Shown here one piece after another: positions 41,144 through 47,824 of a stretch of 64,000 nt of DNA. Source of the stretch: Oscillibacter sp. (lineage in GTDB: Bacteria > Bacillota > Clostridia > Oscillospirales > Oscillospiraceae); the NCBI GenBank assembly GCA_022652655.1, contig JALCRQ010000003.1:27668-91667 (forward strand), in the 5' to 3' direction. A model generated the notes under the pieces. That model saw only the letters and a program-made list of their open reading frames with translations, made no database searches and was not told the DNA's origin. The position numbers and the translations under genes were made by a program. Positions within the stretch are counted from its first letter, which is position 1; the number at the start of each line of letters is the position of its first letter.

Positions 41144-41680
41144 ATGGGCCGTTTTGAAATTGTGGTGGGGGATATTACCGCCTCGGATGCGGAGGCGATC
41201 GTCAATGCCGCCAATGAATCCCTGCTGGGCGGCGGAGGCGTGGACGGCGCCATCCACCGTGCGGCGGGTCCGGAGCTGCTGGAGGAATGTCGGAAGCTCC
41301 GCGGCTGCCCCACGGGGCAGGCCAGGCTGACAGGCGGGTACCGGCTGCGGGCGAAGTACGTCATCCACACCGTGGGGCCCGTCTACCGGGACGGCGCCCA
41401 CGGGGAGGCGGCGGCGCTGGCCTCCTGTTACCGCGCCAGCCTGGAGACGGCGGAGGCCCGGGGAATCCGGGAGGTGGATTTTCCCTCCATTTCCACCGGC
41501 GTTTTTCACTACCCTGTGGCCCAGGCCGCCGCGGTGGCGGAAAAGGCGATTATGGAGTTTCTGCGGGCCCATCCCGCCATGCGGCGGGTGAGAATGGTCT
41601 GCCATGACGAAGCGGCGGCCCGCGTCTATCGCCAGACCTATAACCAGCTGTACGCCGGGGAGAAGGAACAGAGACTGTGA
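41144..41680 (+). CDS. macro-domain protein (O-acetyl-ADP-ribose deacetylase / ADP-ribose-binding, YmdB-like)
   Basis: GDITASDAEAIVNAANESLLGGGGVDGAIHRAAG...IHTVGP...FPSISTGVF. Confidence 0.85.
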   Translation: MGRFEIVVGDITASDAEAIVNAANESLLGGGGVDGAIHRAAGPELLEECRKLRGCPTGQARLTGGYRLRAKYVIHTVGPVYRDGAHGEAAALASCYRASLETAEARGIREVDFPSISTGVFHYPVAQAAAVAEKAIMEFLRAHPAMRRVRMVCHDEAAARVYRQTYNQLYAGEKEQRL

Positions 41681-42528
41681 AGTACATCTACTTGCCGGAG
41701 ATCGGCGCGGCCAGAGTGAGCTCCCGGGAGTTCAGTCTCGCCCAAATTGCCGACAGCGGGCAGTGCTTCCGTCTGACCCGGACATCACCGGAGCGCTGGC
41801 GTCTCATTGCGGGGCGCCGGGTGCTGCGGCTGGAGACGGTTCCCGGCGGAACGCTCTTTTACTGTACGGAGGAGGAGTTTCGCTCCGTGTGGCGCCGGTA
41901 TTTCGACCTGACGGCCGGCTATCGGCGGTATCGCTCCGCGGTTCCGGAGGAGGACGGGTATCTGCGCTCCGCCGTCCGTTTCGGCCGGGGCATCCGGATT
42001 CTGCGGCAGGACCCCTGGGAGATGCTGGTGACGTTTATTATCTCTCAGCGGAAGAATATCCCGGCCATTCGGCTGTCGGTGGAAAAGCTGTGCGCCCGGT
42101 GCGGCGAGCCGCTGCCCGGCGGCCTTTTTGCCTTTCCCGCGGCGGAGCGGCTGGCCGCGCTGCCGCAGGAGGAGCTGGCATTGTGTTCCCTGGGCTACCG
42201 GACGGGCTACATACACGCCGCGGCGCGGATGGCCGCGGAGGGAGAACTGGATTTTGCCGCCCTGGCGCGCTCCGACGATGAGACGCTGCGCCAGGCGCTT
42301 TTGGCGGTGCCGGGCGTGGGCGTCAAGGTGGCGGAGTGCGTGATGCTCTTTGGCTTCCACCGCCTGCGGGGCTTCCCGGTGGACGTGTGGATCGGGCGCA
42401 CGCTGCGGGAGCACTATCCCGACGGGCTGGACCTGACGCGGTACGCGGGGTTTGAGGGTGTGATCCAGCAGTATCTTTTCTACTACGCCAGAAGCGGCGA
42501 GACGTCCGCCCCGGGGAGAGGGGACTGA
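41677..42528 (+). CDS. ogg: HhH-GPD DNA glycosylase, Ogg-type (8-oxoguanine DNA glycosylase/lyase)
   Basis: LLAVPGVGVKVAECVMLFGFHRLRGFPVDVW contains the HhH motif, a Lys and a catalytic Asp, as in the OGG1/bacterial Ogg family. The GTGA start overlaps the macro-gene stop. Confidence 0.7.
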   Translation: MKYIYLPEIGAARVSSREFSLAQIADSGQCFRLTRTSPERWRLIAGRRVLRLETVPGGTLFYCTEEEFRSVWRRYFDLTAGYRRYRSAVPEEDGYLRSAVRFGRGIRILRQDPWEMLVTFIISQRKNIPAIRLSVEKLCARCGEPLPGGLFAFPAAERLAALPQEELALCSLGYRTGYIHAAARMAAEGELDFAALARSDDETLRQALLAVPGVGVKVAECVMLFGFHRLRGFPVDVWIGRTLREHYPDGLDLTRYAGFEGVIQQYLFYYARSGETSAPGRGD

Positions 42529-42674: not shown

Positions 42675-42760
42675 GAGAAATGGGGATCCTTCGCCTTTGG
42701 CGGATACGGCGAAGGATTGGACAGATTGACAAATCGGAAGTTGTGGAGGAGAAAGCGGTT

Positions 42761-43273
42761 GTGAACAAAGAAAACATCGTTCTGAGAAAAGCAAGAAGAG
42801 ATGAAGCGGAATCATGCTATCAATGCATTGAAGATGCAAGATTATATCACAAATTGATGGGTTTCGAACAATGGCACCCCGATTATCCAACGCTTCATAC
42901 ACTGGAAGGTGACATAGAAAACGGGATAGGCTATGCGTTTACAGATGGTGATGAACTGATAGGCTATTGCTGCATTATCATTGGGGATGAACCCGCCTAC
43001 CACGTTATTAACGGTTCATGGAAAACAGACAGAAGGTATGCTGTGGTGCATCGAATGGCTTTTAATGCCGCAAGCAGAGGCAGCGGACTTTCTGAAAAAG
43101 CGTTCTCTGCAATAAAAAACTACTGCCGTGAGAATGAGGTCGATGCCATACGAGTTGATACGCAAGATGAAAATAAAGTTATGCAGCATATTCTTTTAAG
43201 GGAGGGCTTTGCGTACTGCGGCTTGATTGAATTCGGTGGCGGACCTAAACTAGCATATGAGTGGGACAGGTAA
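42761..43273 (+). CDS. GNAT-family N-acetyltransferase on a low-GC islet
   Basis: The GNAT core VVHRMAFNAASRGSGLSEKAFSAIKNYC has the R/Q-x-x-G-x-G/A pattern. GTG 42761 lies 9 nt after GGAGGAG. The track ORF starts at 42680. Confidence 0.75.
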   Translation: MNKENIVLRKARRDEAESCYQCIEDARLYHKLMGFEQWHPDYPTLHTLEGDIENGIGYAFTDGDELIGYCCIIIGDEPAYHVINGSWKTDRRYAVVHRMAFNAASRGSGLSEKAFSAIKNYCRENEVDAIRVDTQDENKVMQHILLREGFAYCGLIEFGGGPKLAYEWDR

Positions 43274-43361: not shown

Positions 43362-43402
43362 CAAAAAAATAAGGCAGCACTGTTTATGCACAGTGCTGCC
43401 TT
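43362..43402 (-). terminator. intrinsic terminator for the 749-aa gene
   Basis: Minus strand: AAGGCAGCACTG-loop-CAGTGCTGCCTT followed by ATTTTTTTG. Confidence 0.7.
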
Positions 43403-43446
43403 AAAACATCTTTATTGGAGGAGCGAAAAGCTCCGGGGGTCCCTTT

Positions 43447-45696
43447 TTATGACGGCTTGTTCCGACCCTGCGGCGGGGAATCGTCCTTTCCGCGCCGGCG
43501 GCGCAGAGTAAAAAGATGGGTGGCCACATACCCCGTCAGGAGAACAAAAATCCCGCACAGGCCGACCCGCAGAGCCAGAAGCAGCGTGCGGCCCAGCGTG
43601 CTGCCGCAGCCGGAGAGGAAGTCGTTTCCCGTGTTCCACATGTCCAGCACGGAGAGAACGGAGATAATGGCCAGGGCACTGTTTGTCTGCTTGGTCTCCT
43701 GCCGGTCGATGATGTTGCTCTTGGTATTGAACACCGTCTGCAGCTGCTCCTGATCCCGTTTCATGCGCTCCAGCAGGCGGTCGATTCCAAACGAGCTGCG
43801 CAGCATCTGGATGGATTTCCGGGAGGATGGAAAGTTGACCTGCACATCCCAGAAATCCACGGTTTTGGCGTAATCGTCGTAGATTTTATCCGCCTGTCTG
43901 AGAAATTCCACCGGGGAGAGATCGGCGTCACCGCTGAAGATGTTCACGATCTGGGCATCGGCGATCTGGATGGCGGCCTCCTCAAAGAGAATCAGCTCCA
44001 TGTAGCAGAGCGTAATGGCGGCCTCGCACAGCCTGCATTTCAGCGAGGCCCGCAGCTCCGGCGAAAACTGGAGCAGCACATTGGTGCTGGCGCAGACAAA
44101 GCCCCGGTCATACTGTCCCATGCCGTCCCGGGAGTTGACCCGCTCCAGAATGTCGGGATCCACAATGCGGCCCAGATTTTCCCCGTCGGGATAGATGGTC
44201 TCCGCATACAGAAGCGAGGCGATCTGCTGGCTGGAAAGGCAGCTTTTGTCCTTGGGGACGGTGATAAAAAACTTAGGGGAGCCCCGTTTGGAAACGGCGT
44301 ACCGGGCTCCGAGAAATTCATAGAGATTGACCCATTCCGACCCGTCGTACGCCATCAGGCAGTTCCGGATCACATTGTCCATGAAATGGCTGAGCAGGAA
44401 GGGGGAGGAGAGGGAGTACACCAGCAGGACGCCGCAGCGGCTGTGCAGATCCACCGAGAGAATCAGATCCACATAGGCCGGCTGGCCGATTACCGCGCCC
44501 TCCTCCCGATAGCGGTTGACGGCGATTTCCTCCGTAATCTGTACCTTGAGCTTGCCGAGATAATAGCGGCGGATGCGCTGCTTCAGAGCGGCCCGCTCGT
44601 CCACCTGATCCAGCCGGGAGGGGATGCCGGCCTCGTAATGGGTGCGGAAATCCAGATCCCGCAGCAGGGAGGCGGCCTTCGTGTCGAAAAGGGCGGAACC
44701 GGCCTCCAGCTTCTGGGCGCTGCGGTACTCCACCGGCACCAGGAAGAAGCTGTCCGGCACCACCGCCCACTCACTGACCCGGGAGGGCAGCATGGCCGCC
44801 AGTGTCTGATCCTCCAGCAGCGGCCCGTCGTAGGGGAGCGTCTGCTCGTAAAACAGCATCCCGTCCCGGGCGCACTCGGTATAGTGGGCCACGTTGATGT
44901 AGCGCTGATAGAGGAGCAGCGAATCATAGCTGAGCTCCGTGAGGACGGCACCGCAGGTCTGTCCCGGACGCCGGACAAAGAAAGAGACGCCCTGGGACTG
45001 GCCGATCTCATATCCCGGGAGCGGCCGGTGGGCGATCATTTTGTAGGGAGCGCCCAGCGCATCCAGAATCTCCGCGGAGGGCAGGAGCAGACGGACAGGG
45101 TCGTCCAGCTGCAGCTCATTCATAAACTGGGAGGGCCGGTGGATGACCAGAGAGTACCCTGGCTCGATTTCCTGTACGGAAAAATTCCGCCGCCAGTAAA
45201 GCGGGAGCGACGCGGCGTTGGACACGTCTCCCGCAAGGCAGTAGGTGGGATAGTCGTCGATGAGAGCATCCAGCAGCTCCCCGGCGATTCCCCGGCGGCG
45301 GTATTCCGCCTTCACGCCCAGGGAAACCAGATACAGGACGTTTTCACTGAGACTGCGCACCGGCTCGTGGATCTGTTTTTCATGGGGGAGAGACACGGTT
45401 CCGCCTTTGATTTTTCCGTCAAAAATATCCAGAAAAGAGGCGTAATCCGCGGCCCGCACGGCCTGATAGTCGAAATACAGCAAAAAGGCGGCCAGGACGC
45501 CCTGCTCCCGGACGCCCAGCGCCCAGCGGTGCGACAGGCAGAACCGCAGGGAGCGGGAGAAGCGCGCCTCCATTCCCGCCGCCCTGGTACGGACGTCGGG
45601 AAACAGCTTGGCATAATACGCATCCGCGGCAAAGCAGCTGGAAAAAAGCCCCATCAGCTCATCGAAATCCTCAGGCCGCAGCGGTTCAATCTTCAA
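43447..45696 (-). CDS. fusion protein: N-terminal GNAT acetyltransferase, a ~450-aa uncharacterised domain, and a C-terminal coiled coil plus 2-TM hairpin (CorA-like topology)
   Basis: GNAT motif A is LVSLGVKAEYRRRGIAGELLDAL. The C-terminus reads ...LLERMKRDQEQLQTVFNTKSN..NSALAIISVLSVLDMWN..loop..LLLALRVGLCGIFVLLTGYVATHLF-TLRRRRGK. The TTG start lies 7 nt after GGAGG and overlaps the upstream stop (TTGA). Confidence 0.7.
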   Translation of the reverse strand: MKIEPLRPEDFDELMGLFSSCFAADAYYAKLFPDVRTRAAGMEARFSRSLRFCLSHRWALGVREQGVLAAFLLYFDYQAVRAADYASFLDIFDGKIKGGTVSLPHEKQIHEPVRSLSENVLYLVSLGVKAEYRRRGIAGELLDALIDDYPTYCLAGDVSNAASLPLYWRRNFSVQEIEPGYSLVIHRPSQFMNELQLDDPVRLLLPSAEILDALGAPYKMIAHRPLPGYEIGQSQGVSFFVRRPGQTCGAVLTELSYDSLLLYQRYINVAHYTECARDGMLFYEQTLPYDGPLLEDQTLAAMLPSRVSEWAVVPDSFFLVPVEYRSAQKLEAGSALFDTKAASLLRDLDFRTHYEAGIPSRLDQVDERAALKQRIRRYYLGKLKVQITEEIAVNRYREEGAVIGQPAYVDLILSVDLHSRCGVLLVYSLSSPFLLSHFMDNVIRNCLMAYDGSEWVNLYEFLGARYAVSKRGSPKFFITVPKDKSCLSSQQIASLLYAETIYPDGENLGRIVDPDILERVNSRDGMGQYDRGFVCASTNVLLQFSPELRASLKCRLCEAAITLCYMELILFEEAAIQIADAQIVNIFSGDADLSPVEFLRQADKIYDDYAKTVDFWDVQVNFPSSRKSIQMLRSSFGIDRLLERMKRDQEQLQTVFNTKSNIIDRQETKQTNSALAIISVLSVLDMWNTGNDFLSGCGSTLGRTLLLALRVGLCGIFVLLTGYVATHLFTLRRRRGKDDSPPQGRNKPS

Positions 45697-46577
45697 GCCA
45701 TTACCTCCACCACGTATTTTTTGAGACTTGTCACCGGGTTGTAGGAGAGTTTGGAATACCGCAGACCCGGGTCGCCCATGTCCTCCTCACGGTTGATATA
45801 GACGATTCCCTTTTCCACGGCGCGCAGCGCGAACTGATTGACGATCATCTGGTAGGCGCCGGGGTAGTTCCGGTCGGCCTTCTCAATGTGCAGCAGCAGC
45901 GTGTCCCGGATGATTTCGCCCAGCGTAAAGCCGATGATCTCGCCGTCCACCCGCAGCACCGCGCCGGTCATCCCGTAAAGCGCGTAGTTGTTCAGAACCT
46001 CCAGCGTCATCTTCTCCTCCTCCCGGGCGCTTTGGAAGGAGAGGGCGTCCAGGCGGAAGCAGCGTTCCAGAAAGCGCAGGATTTCCGGAATATCCGCCTG
46101 CGTCAGCTCCTGAAACGTCCAGCCGGGATTGGTGTTGAGAAACTTGCGGAGGTGATTGCGCTGACCGCCGAATTTCTTGCCCTGAAAATTCGCCAGATCG
46201 GCAGCCAGATACAAATAGTCGGCGTATTCCGGCTGCTGCAGGATGTTGAGCTCCTGAAAGTGATCGGCCAGGTTCCGGAGATACTCCGCGGGGACGGTGC
46301 ACAGCCGGCAGGGAAGTCCCGCCTCCCGGCAGTACGTGCGGATCTGATCCAGCCCCTGTCCCTCGTCTCCGCCGATGGGAACCGTAAAAAAGGTCTCCCC
46401 GGCGGCGTTTTTCAGTTTTGTAAACAGGGTTTTATGTTCAATGCAGAACTCCATGCGGAAATAATCCCGCCACATGAACATTCCGCCGGCGGAAAAATCA
46501 CAGGTCCGGGATTTGGTGAGCTGGAAAAAGGGCCGCACCTGTTCCAGATCCTGCAGCTTCAGAGGGGAAAACTCCAT
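45693..46577 (-). CDS. DUF2156-like protein (C-terminal domain of phosphatidylglycerol lysyltransferase MprF; aminoacyl-tRNA-dependent transferase fold)
   Basis: About 294 aa. The N-terminal pattern LKLQDLEQVRPFF..SRTCDFSAGGMFMWRDYF and the tandem GNAT-like halves resemble stand-alone DUF2156 proteins. ATG 46577 is preferred over GTG 46631, which lies inside a leader hairpin. Confidence 0.6.
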   Translation of the reverse strand: MEFSPLKLQDLEQVRPFFQLTKSRTCDFSAGGMFMWRDYFRMEFCIEHKTLFTKLKNAAGETFFTVPIGGDEGQGLDQIRTYCREAGLPCRLCTVPAEYLRNLADHFQELNILQQPEYADYLYLAADLANFQGKKFGGQRNHLRKFLNTNPGWTFQELTQADIPEILRFLERCFRLDALSFQSAREEEKMTLEVLNNYALYGMTGAVLRVDGEIIGFTLGEIIRDTLLLHIEKADRNYPGAYQMIVNQFALRAVEKGIVYINREEDMGDPGLRYSKLSYNPVTSLKKYVVEVMA

Positions 46578-46717
46578 AGTGACACTCCCGTTTTTGTTGA
46601 TTTTCTCTGTTCGCGGCCGCGGAAAGCTCACAATCCAACGGGAATTTTCCGCGGCACCGGCCGCCCCGTTCGGGAGGGCCGTACGGAAGGTGAGATATAT
46701 TCATCTTTTATCATATT

Positions 46718-46746
46718 ATTCTATCATGTGGGTATGGCAAAAACAA
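46718..46746 (-). promoter_or_regulatory. sigma-A-like promoter for the DUF2156 / GNAT-2TM operon
   Basis: Minus strand: TTGTTT, a 17-nt spacer ending in TGA, then TAGAAT. This predicts a 5' UTR of about 130 nt. Confidence 0.4.
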
Positions 46747-46828: not shown

Positions 46829-47824
46829 TCAGGACAAAGAGTCCAGCACCGACTGATTGGCGTCGGAGGCGTTTGCCGTCCAGCCAAGGCCCGTGGAGTC
46901 GGTGTCCGGGTATTCGGGGAGACAGGTGAACGGGTGGTACTCCTGCCCCTCCTTCAGTTCCCCTTCAAACACACGGACAGGCGCCTGAAGCAAGCCGCCC
47001 TTCAGCGTGTAGACGTCGATGGCCTCATAGCCCATGTGGGCGTTCTGCACCACCAGCCTGCCGGAGCCGTTCAGCCCGCAGGCCACGGCGTTTCCGCTGG
47101 AAAAGCTGCCGCAGACCGCGGCGGCGCCGTTTTTAAAGGTGTAAACAGTGTCAAGGTAATCTGCTTCACACGTGCCGGATTTCAGTAATAATTCCGGAAT
47201 CCCATCCCCGTCCGCGTCGTAAATGCTGTACTGGCAGGGGGCGGCCTTGGAGAGGAGCGCCTGGTAGGCCTCCTTCCAGGAAGCGGACTGCGGGGCGGCC
47301 GCCTCCGGGGTTTTTGCGGCGCTTTTGCCGGTGTATTTCCAGGTAAAGGAGGCGCCGACGGCCTCCTCGCCCTCCACAAGGGTGCGGTACTCCGATTCCC
47401 GCCCGGCGTCTTCCGCGTCGTACTCCACGTCCGTATACGGGTGCAGCCGATAAAAAGAAACACCGTGGGCCTTGTCTGCGGAGAGCAGCACGGGGGCGCC
47501 GTCGCAGATGTCCGGCAGGCTCTCTCCGTCTTTCACCAGTACGATCCCGAACGCGACGCCGCCCCAGTCCCGGTTGGACAGGGACAGAAAGTCAATGCCG
47601 GTACCGTCGTCGTACACCGCGGTGCCGCACAAATCCTTCCACGCCTCCGGCAGCGTGACCTGACAGTCGTAGCCGTTCAGCCGGAAGGAGACTGCTTGGC
47701 CCCCGGACTGCGGGCCCGGCGCGGAGGAGGACGCGGCGGCTTGTCTGCCGCAGCCGGCCGGCAGCGCCGCCGTCAGAAGGACCGCCGCCAGAAGGGCCGC
47801 TGCCGGAAGGAAGTGCTTTTTCAT
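46829..47824 (-). CDS. lipoprotein of unknown function
   Basis: Signal peptide with lipobox LPAGC. Contains a DADGDGIPELLL motif. I recognised no catalytic motifs. Confidence 0.65.
   Translation of the reverse strand: MKKHFLPAAALLAAVLLTAALPAGCGRQAAASSSAPGPQSGGQAVSFRLNGYDCQVTLPEAWKDLCGTAVYDDGTGIDFLSLSNRDWGGVAFGIVLVKDGESLPDICDGAPVLLSADKAHGVSFYRLHPYTDVEYDAEDAGRESEYRTLVEGEEAVGASFTWKYTGKSAAKTPEAAAPQSASWKEAYQALLSKAAPCQYSIYDADGDGIPELLLKSGTCEADYLDTVYTFKNGAAAVCGSFSSGNAVACGLNGSGRLVVQNAHMGYEAIDVYTLKGGLLQAPVRVFEGELKEGQEYHPFTCLPEYPDTDSTGLGWTANASDANQSVLDSLS

Follow-up and report, generated by a model that had tools for sequence, protein, structure and literature searches.

The DNA analyzed here, a window of 64,000 nucleotides (nt) from Oscillibacter sp. 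(assembly GCA_022652655.1, contig JALCRQ010000003.1) within which all positions are counted, contains two long open reading frames (ORFs) on the minus strand, gene 1 (45693-46577) and gene 2 (43447-45696), at the coordinates first assigned to them. Gene 1 encodes a stand-alone DUF2156 protein of 294 amino acids (aa), i.e. a member of the LPG_synthase_C family with the double-GNAT aminoacyl-tRNA-transferase fold, which has no transmembrane (TM) segment. Gene 2 encodes a 749-aa protein in which a GNAT-type acetyltransferase head is combined with a membrane body that is predicted to be CorA-like in fold.

The two genes constitute a translationally coupled unit with its own terminator. The TGA stop codon of gene 1 (45695-45693) overlaps the TTG start codon of gene 2 (45696-45694) in the junction TTGA (45693-45696, minus strand), with the sequence GGAGG located 7 nt 5′ of the TTG. 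This arrangement, already described in the original prediction, can be read directly in the DNA and is indicative of translational coupling. No start codon precedes this TTG within the gene 2 ORF, and homologs start at the same alignment column; for gene 1, the ATG at 46577 agrees with the N-termini of homologs better than does a longer ORF starting with GTG at 46631. In other loci the equivalent junctions include abutting genes, overlaps of up to 8 nt and gaps of up to 10 nt. An intrinsic terminator, whose 14-bp stem includes 7 GC pairs and precedes the run TTTTTTT, was identified 3′ of gene 2 (43370-43403, minus strand).

Domain architecture of the two proteins

In MprF and ErdS the double-GNAT DUF2156 fold transfers amino acids from aminoacyl-tRNA, and a positively charged α(+) helix placed between the two GNAT halves has been implicated in aminoacyl-tRNA binding (PMC7334510). 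The product of gene 1 matches PF09924 (LPG_synthase_C/DUF2156) with E=4e-41 and 141.3 bits (cutoff 27.5) over profile positions 2-297 of 298, i.e. over both GNAT halves, which bears out its initial assignment as a stand-alone DUF2156 protein. Hydropathy analysis revealed no hydrophobic segment. A strongly basic stretch, GKKFGGQRNHLRKF, at residues ~130-143 is found at the place described for the α(+) helix (PMC7334510), as judged by eye and not by structure. The same stretch is conserved in the closest solved structure (2HQY, E=2e-44), an uncharacterised stand-alone DUF2156 protein deposited only as a “conserved hypothetical protein”, for which no functional study was found in the literature. 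The double-GNAT DUF2156 domain of MprF, other aminoacyl-phosphatidylglycerol synthases and fungal ErdS is thus present in full in gene 1, together with a candidate for the basic inter-domain helix; gene 1 differs from these enzymes in having neither a membrane/flippase domain nor a fused aminoacyl-tRNA synthetase. Its identification as an MprF was ruled out, since the N-terminal multi-TM flippase/membrane domain is missing.

Homologs of gene 2 are 37-50% identical to it over the full length (E down to 1e-232), and an alignment of 25 full-length ones (37-49% identity) served to define conserved positions. Residues 1-190 (45127-45696, minus strand) constitute a GNAT N-acetyltransferase domain, recognized by PF00583 as well as by AlphaFold2 modelling with Foldseek. 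The PF00583 match, at residues 80-170, has E=6e-7 and 30.2 bits (cutoff 20.7). The acetyl-CoA pyrophosphate loop (motif A) reads RRRGIAG, and its G136 is invariant in the 25 homologs, in agreement with the GNAT domain and motif proposed earlier. In a motif-B-like segment, DVSN...SLPLYWRRNF (SLxIYxxRxF in the family), D157, S159 and F172 show no variation, and Y167 hardly any. Given the conservation of these residues, the GNAT domain looks catalytically intact.

In an AlphaFold2 model of the entire protein, built on the 25-homolog alignment (mean predicted local distance difference test score, pLDDT, of 79), the GNAT domain occupies residues 1-186 with a pLDDT of ~90. Foldseek searches with this model retrieved GNATs only, with a probability of 1.0 to 4m85, 7k09 and 3qb8. 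The best structural neighbours of residues 1-190 are GNATs acting on small amines (polyamine, arylalkylamine and puromycin N-acetyltransferases; 3qb8, 5k9n, 7k09), whose acetyl-CoA loop and motif-B Tyr are conserved in gene 2. The gene 2 domain is, however, only 11-19% identical to them, carries a large family-specific insert (FDYxxxR...LPY...H) and is fused to a membrane protein. GNAT toxins that acetylate aminoacyl-tRNA were set aside, as they are not among the structural neighbours of the model.

No significant match to the remaining ~560 aa of gene 2 was found in Pfam or NCBIfam. Because GNAT hits swamped the searches with the whole model, residues 195-749 were modelled separately (AlphaFold2, mean pLDDT 72). 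Foldseek comparison of this model with the PDB placed its first 100-120 residues on 1v30 (probability 1.0, template modelling score, TM-score, of 0.59, E=8e-3), and further proteins with the gamma-glutamyl-cyclotransferase (GGCT)/AIG2 fold were matched, namely GGCT itself (3cry/2rbh), YtfP (1xhs) and 2g0q. Against BFVD, the same segment matched a phage GGCT with a probability of 1.0. Residues ~196-312 (44761-45111, minus strand) are thus predicted to adopt a GGCT/AIG2-like fold. Neither PF06094 nor PF13772 nor any other Pfam family matched this segment at E ≤10, and a PDB profile search gave nothing relevant. It resembles GGCT, AIG2 and BtrG-like proteins (1v30, 3cry, 1xhs) in fold and differs from them in possessing its own family-specific set of invariant residues (F240, L261, Q264, R265, N268 and E274).

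The rest of the protein, i.e. the C-terminal ~430 residues (315-749), is predicted to be CorA-like in fold, with the resemblance covering the whole body. Foldseek aligned ~400 columns of the 195-749 model with whole Thermotoga maritima CorA chains (2bbj, 4i0u, 3jcf, 8tmb; probability 0.5-0.9), and a search against BFVD returned a phage “Mg2+ transporter” (probability 0.23). The model of the entire protein is β-rich from the end of the GNAT domain to residue ~550 and continues with helices at 560-588, 595-619 and 623-636, a 59-residue helix (638-696), a six-residue turn and a last helix (703-737). An α/β domain, a set of helices, a very long stalk helix running into the first TM helix (TM1), a short outer loop, a second TM helix (TM2) and a basic cytoplasmic C-terminus are what the predicted gene 2 subunit would share with CorA, Mrs2 and ZntB (PF01544). 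It differs from these proteins in the lack of the GMN motif and of sequence similarity detectable by Pfam or hhalign, in its weakly conserved TM helices, and in the additional N-terminal GNAT and GGCT-like domains.

The first part of this body is a predicted cytoplasmic α/β domain (residues ~315-550; 44047-44754, minus strand), delimited by conservation, AlphaFold2 and Foldseek, in which the invariant polar motifs DFRTHYEAG, RIxRYYLGK, PFLxSHxMDNVIRN, KRGTPK, ASLLxxETIY and GMGQYDR were distinguished. The same three lines of evidence define the following helices and the start of the stalk helix (residues ~552-670; 43687-44043, minus strand), with the conserved motifs ELILFEEAAI, FWDIQVNYPTSQKS and DIIDR. 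Together, the α/β and helical regions are the most conserved part of the gene 2 family and contain dozens of invariant polar residues.

TM1 (residues ~671-690; 43627-43686, minus strand) is helical in AlphaFold2, continuous with the stalk helix 638-696, and ends with DMWNTG. TM2 (residues ~704-731; 43504-43587, minus strand) has a Kyte-Doolittle value of 2.08 over residues 700-731 and coincides with the AlphaFold2 helix 703-737. It is followed by an Arg-rich cytoplasmic tail, RRRRGKDD..., which ends with the stop codon (43447-43503, minus strand). The order of elements is ...SALAIISVLSVLDMWNTG-(loop)-TLLLALRVGLCGIFVLLTGYVATHLF-TLRRRRGK; the TM1 core is SALAIISVLSVLDMW, the loop is NTGNDFLSGCGSTLGR, and TM2 (TLLLALRVGLCGIFVLLTGYVATHLF) directly precedes TLRRRRGK. 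A basic C-terminal tail is present in almost all homologs, and an acidic extracytoplasmic loop, WxDGxDY, in the main clade of the family. Two TM helices together with a basic C-terminus should place both ends of the protein, and with them all enzyme domains, in the cytoplasm.

The original prediction had described a tail of two membrane helices and an Arg-rich stop-transfer sequence, reminiscent of CorA, preceded by about 450 aa that could not be assigned. The tail was recovered by hydropathy (marginal for TM1, strong for TM2) and as helices in the AlphaFold2 model. The resemblance to CorA holds at the level of fold, where it reaches well beyond the tail over the ~430 C-terminal residues, and fails in Pfam, in hhalign and with respect to the GMN motif. 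The supposedly unassignable portion can be divided, at the fold level, into the GGCT-like domain and the CorA-like body; it still has no match to any sequence family in the databases searched. Neither SLATT, DUF155 nor other named 2-TM effector families matched gene 2, and PDB sequence searches with three profiles yielded chance matches only (keratin, a short-chain dehydrogenase and a ribosomal protein).

Relatives of gene 2 and linkage to DUF2156

A word-indexed search identified 27 clusters of gene 2 homologs at 90% identity, all of 730-780 aa. An exhaustive profile search with residues 195-749, with representatives clustered at 50% identity, revealed a larger family comprising 362 representatives at E ≤1e-3, of which 101 were found at E ≤1e-30. 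Some relatives have only ~400 aa, and their homology to gene 2 starts at its residue ~315 and extends to its end (hhalign probability 100%, E=7e-47); they correspond to the predicted CorA-like body alone. In four loci, which hold three of the four short relatives examined, a gene encoding a GNAT-like protein of 182-191 aa overlaps the start of the CorA-like gene, while the fourth short relative is accompanied by a 280-aa GNAT-like gene located 3′ of it. The small GNAT-like proteins give marginal matches to PF00583 (E from 1.5e-4 to 0.04, one above the cutoff) and match our own GNAT hidden Markov model with E between 8e-5 and 7e-3. Since the two parts are fused in gene 2 and occur as split pairs beside the short relatives, a GNAT or GNAT-like protein and the membrane body, fused or separate, look like the recurring core partnership, which is wider than the pairing with DUF2156.

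One of the split pairs (L030:1727-7206) lies just 3′ of two radical-SAM genes (one of the SPASM type), a GNAT gene and small ORFs, a neighbourhood that resembles a peptide-modification cluster.

In a second subfamily, the N-terminal domain of ~230 aa has no detectable GNAT signal. Examples were found in Eubacterium ramulus ATCC 29099, Mediterraneibacter, Synergistales and a very common human-gut organism (~39 contigs). An Amidohydro_2 gene is located 5′ of the CorA-like gene in 7 of the 8 non-GNAT lineages.

In two unrelated arrangements (L066:5701-9560 and L043:78-3974), members of the gene 2 family occur beside genes for a VWA-domain membrane protein and a tubulin/FtsZ-like protein (with the motif GLGGTG). 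The gene order is DUF2156, Amidohydro_2, CorA-like, VWA and tubulin-like in the abundant human-gut species, and VWA, tubulin-like and GNAT-CorA-like in L043 and L044. The tubulin-like proteins of the two arrangements are 61% identical; neither VWA nor tubulin-like genes are present in the window. Five proteins among the 362 representatives (P0109, P0120, P0121, P0127 and P0130) share the N-terminal 330-430 residues of the 739-aa protein of the human-gut species (L066-type loci) and then run on in frame into a VWA, a tubulin-like or another TM protein. They were rejected as new architectures, being in-frame fusions of one species’ protein to downstream genes, and could be deletion variants or assembly chimeras.

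Searches of Pfam, NCBIfam, PADLOC, PDB sequences and the literature brought up no description of the gene 2 family, and the earlier statement that the two genes fit no described pathway was upheld by the databases and literature searched. Judging from these searches, the individual folds are known, and the combination and the membrane family itself appear not to be.

Stand-alone DUF2156 proteins abound in Clostridia and Bacteroidota, and a recurrent operon partner provides a concrete handle on their role. Conservation of the gene neighbourhood, which had been suggested as a check, was analyzed in 95 related loci from genome and metagenome collections plus the window, dereplicated at 85% identity. 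A DUF2156 gene is present in the same operon as the gene 2 family in 15 of the 31 dereplicated lineages. For a family with about one member per genome, chance would produce far fewer such cases; the pairing thus recurs, and it is facultative. The lineages with a linked DUF2156 span Bacillota, Fusobacteriota, Bacteroidota and Synergistota, and the carriers include Oscillospiraceae, Flavonifractor, Christensenella, Fusobacterium and Tannerella. Among the 23 assessable GNAT-type lineages, DUF2156 is directly 5′ of the gene 2 homolog always in 8, in some loci only in 2 and never in 13; where the genes are adjacent, the gaps are ≤23 nt (locus coordinates). In the non-GNAT subfamily DUF2156 is placed 5′ of Amidohydro_2 in 5 of the 8 lineages.

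Several observations concern the gain or loss of gene 2 beside DUF2156. Between genomes with ~90% DNA identity, gene 2 constitutes a clean 2.3-kb indel right after the DUF2156 stop codon (L004:1664-3919 vs L032:4880-4961). A 2.4-kb cassette containing gene 2 and the last 44 nt of DUF2156 is 95% identical between two loci with unrelated flanks (L043:3951-6373 vs L046:3951-6370). The DUF2156 sequences that belong to pairs do not group together in a neighbour-joining tree but are interspersed with the rest, and DUF2156 is found near SepF and DivIVA genes both in the window and in one locus where it is solitary. On the basis of the indel, the cassette, the tree and the shared context, DUF2156 looks like a common resident gene and gene 2 like a variable add-on that is gained or lost beside it.

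In these comparisons gene 2 behaves like a mobile cassette. In one further locus (L042:3130-3997), the DUF2156 gene 5′ of the gene 2 homolog can be matched only as three segments that lie in different frames, pointing to a pseudogene or sequencing errors.

Proposed function and alternative explanations

The original prediction had considered that the pair could modify a lipid or envelope component, or could be a membrane-acting effector gated by acylation. We propose, with a probability of roughly 0.4, that gene 2 is an oligomeric, channel-like membrane protein whose enzyme head, together with partner proteins, acts on an amine or aminoacyl metabolite. According to this model, gene 2 subunits, their two termini facing the cytoplasm, would assemble into an oligomer like that of CorA, giving a channel- or pore-like device other than a canonical Mg2+ CorA channel. 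Its conserved polar cytoplasmic domain would bind a small ligand or cargo, and the attached or adjacent enzymes would produce, alter or eliminate that compound, for which an amine or an aminoacylated metabolite is the most plausible candidate. DUF2156 would supply an aminoacyl group from aminoacyl-tRNA, the GNAT domain would N-acetylate the amine with acetyl-CoA, and the amidohydrolase of the sister subfamily would act as an alternative editing enzyme; this chemistry would gate the pore or ready the compound for passage. A more specific version, in which a small aminoacylated or acetylated metabolite is made on a CorA-fold pore of gut anaerobes by its own head chemistry and either gates the channel or is exported through it, seems doubtful to us. 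That chemistry would be an N-acetylation dependent on acetyl-CoA, which the tRNA-dependent aminoacyl transferase and, in the sister subfamily, the amidohydrolase would feed. If true, it would provide the first non-lipid role for the widespread stand-alone bacterial DUF2156 proteins and a new family of enzyme-coupled channels.

The model is supported by the PDB and BFVD libraries, which independently gave the same two folds (GGCT and CorA/Mg2+ transporter). Also in its favour are the DUF2156 and GNAT matches with the conserved GNAT motifs, the long helix continuous with TM1, the acidic loop and the basic tail, the recurrence of GNAT-like partners, the operon associations with DUF2156 and Amidohydro_2 and, as described below, the match of one distant family member to a CorA-like PADLOC profile and the erdS-erdH precedent. 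The pattern of conservation in the family suggests a specific cytoplasmic ligand-binding or catalytic site joined to a more generic membrane element, and the body is probably CorA-like in its mode of assembly as well. The partner family, in which an enzyme head is joined to a membrane body resembling CorA in predicted fold, is missing from the databases searched.

A number of results weigh against the proposed model. The structural matches to CorA are modest and hold for the fold only (Foldseek E 0.01-0.1, TM-score 0.25-0.30), and TM1 of gene 2 has a hydrophobic core of just 15 residues, which is marginal by hydropathy and clearer in homologs. The TM helices vary between clades and are far less conserved than the cytoplasmic domain, as would be expected of an anchor or of a pore without selectivity more than of a selective channel. 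By-eye alignment places LLPS and LxYQR where the catalytic YGSL and LDxxE (Glu) motifs of cyclotransferases are expected, and the GGCT-like domain is therefore probably not a canonical cyclotransferase. At the sequence level, PF01544 (CorA) matched neither gene 2, nor its C-terminal part, nor any of 16 short relatives. An hhalign comparison of the family with an alignment of E. coli-type CorA gave a probability of 0.1, a negative of little weight because of the low diversity of that alignment (homologs ≥87% identical). GMN is absent from the family, being replaced by LDMWNTG here, by the consensus FSAWxDGxDY and by unrelated sequence in a second clade. With these tests failing, the gene 2 body was not filed in the CorA family, and its identification as a canonical Mg2+ CorA was rejected in view of the absence of GMN. 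As for the partner, DUF2156 is absent beside gene 2 in 16 of the 31 lineages; gene 1 has at least 681 related clusters, and the three examined are solitary genes in unrelated contexts. The role of DUF2156 may thus be accessory.

The same failures bear on the idea that gene 2 is a true CorA-type channel for divalent cations (Mg2+/Co2+/Ni2+) regulated by a fused, acetyl-CoA-sensing GNAT. It is in keeping with the retrieval of full-length CorA chains by Foldseek, the basic C-terminal tail and the acidic outer loop. However, with TM1 ending in DMWNTG here and in SAWxDG or unrelated sequence in homologs, no member tested matching PF01544, the hhalign probability of 0.1 and poorly conserved pore helices, we regard it as highly improbable. 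A lipid- or envelope-directed aminoacylation module has better prospects, and we still consider it rather unlikely. In such a module, DUF2156 would aminoacylate a lipid or envelope precursor, gene 2 would tether the reaction and N-acetylate the added amino group, the amidohydrolase would remove that group in the other subfamily, and the 2-TM body would replace the membrane domain of MprF. The characterised DUF2156 enzymes cited all aminoacylate lipids (PMC7334510), and gene 1, which lacks a membrane segment, is nevertheless translationally coupled to a membrane protein. Pairs of a synthase and a hydrolase of its product are also known: in erdS-erdH, the gene of a DUF2156 synthase is clustered with that of an enzyme whose substrate is the synthase product (PMC7334510). 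Likewise, the operon of gene 1 encodes enzymes for which its product could be the substrate, and the Amidohydro_2 partner of the second subfamily fits an editing role. Yet the N-terminal head would lie far from the bilayer, to judge from the CorA fold, and the body shows no resemblance to flippases or other lipid-handling domains in Pfam or Foldseek searches. Moreover, the core partnership is that of GNAT and membrane module, often lacking DUF2156, whose homologs are mostly solitary and in unrelated contexts.

The presence/absence variation of gene 2 is relevant to two other explanations. One is that it encodes a conflict or defence effector, a ligand-triggered, membrane-disrupting pore with its GNAT or GGCT-like head and partner enzymes as sensor or regulator. 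Type III CRISPR systems possess a CorA-family membrane effector activated by the S-adenosylmethionine-AMP conjugate SAM-AMP (PMC10600005). Like this effector (PMC10600005), gene 2 would be a divergent membrane protein of the CorA fold that responds to a small cytoplasmic ligand and is partnered with ligand-making or ligand-degrading enzymes. The patchy, seemingly horizontally transferred distribution over four phyla of gut and rumen bacteria is consistent with such a role, as are the clean 2.3-kb presence/absence polymorphism, the 95%-identical cassette in unrelated flanks and the contrast between poorly conserved TM segments and a strongly conserved cytoplasmic domain. A PADLOC CorA-like profile was weakly matched by one distant relative (P0135, E=6e-4) among 9 relatives tested. 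Against this, neither gene 1 nor gene 2 matched any family in PADLOC-DB v2, and a scan of viral contigs with a single profile detected no relatives of gene 2. No CRISPR-Cas context, other defence genes or defence island was found near the two genes, whose neighbours in the window are housekeeping genes. In other loci the flanking contexts are heterogeneous and mostly metabolic, and the partners are GNAT, DUF2156 and Amidohydro_2 as opposed to Cas10, NrN and SAM-AMP lyase. A defence role thus appears quite unlikely. The other explanation, to which we likewise give little credence, denies any functional link: DUF2156 would be a resident housekeeping gene, and gene 2 would land or persist 3′ of it and act alone as a membrane-anchored acetyltransferase. 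The lineages in which gene 2 has no adjacent DUF2156 (16 of 31, with two more mixed), the scatter of pair-associated among solitary DUF2156 sequences in the tree and the indel beside a conserved DUF2156 all speak for it. It accounts poorly for an adjacency far above chance that extends over four phyla and both subfamilies, also with an intervening amidohydrolase, and for start and stop codons that overlap or abut in many loci.

The channel-like, metabolite-directed model of gene 2 has consequences beyond this locus. If the protein is a ligand- or acylation-controlled pore, the concept of CorA-fold effectors extends beyond type III CRISPR. Comparative metabolomics and lipidomics are feasible, because the sister form occurs in a very common human-gut bacterium and natural presence/absence variants exist.

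Transcription signals and neighbouring genes

The two-gene unit had been credited with its own promoter, a 5′ untranslated region (UTR) of ~130 nt and its own terminator. While the terminator is strong, a promoter-like site (TTGCCA, 16-nt spacer, TAATAT; 46713-46740, minus strand) matches at 9 of 12 positions, and two such sites were seen vs 1.2 expected from shuffled sequences, i.e. no enrichment; the 5′ UTR is accordingly only plausible. The putative leader of gene 1 (46578-46706, minus strand; 129 nt) has a predicted minimum free energy of −47.6 kcal/mol (z = −2.3), with the Shine-Dalgarno region ACGGGAG paired with an upstream CUUCCGU. Rfam searches detected nothing in the region of the two genes, leader included, and the leader is conserved in none of 108 related loci.

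On one side, the unit is adjoined by genes for an amidohydrolase, a macro-domain protein, an OGG glycosylase and a convergent GNAT, and on the other by those for a lipoprotein, SepF, an SLH protein and a MacB/FtsX ABC system. The 331-aa predicted lipoprotein (46829-47824, minus strand), whose signal peptide ends with ...LPAGC, is encoded directly 5′ of the promoter region of gene 1 and has no Pfam match. The convergent gene (42680-43273, plus strand) encodes a separate GNAT of 197 aa (PF00583, E=6e-8) and ends ~100 nt from the hairpin terminator, which it shares with gene 2. Further along, 3′ of an Amidohydro_1 gene, the macro-domain and OGG-type 8-oxoguanine glycosylase genes (41144-42528, plus strand) overlap by 4 nt (41677-41680) and may form a small repair or ADP-ribose operon.

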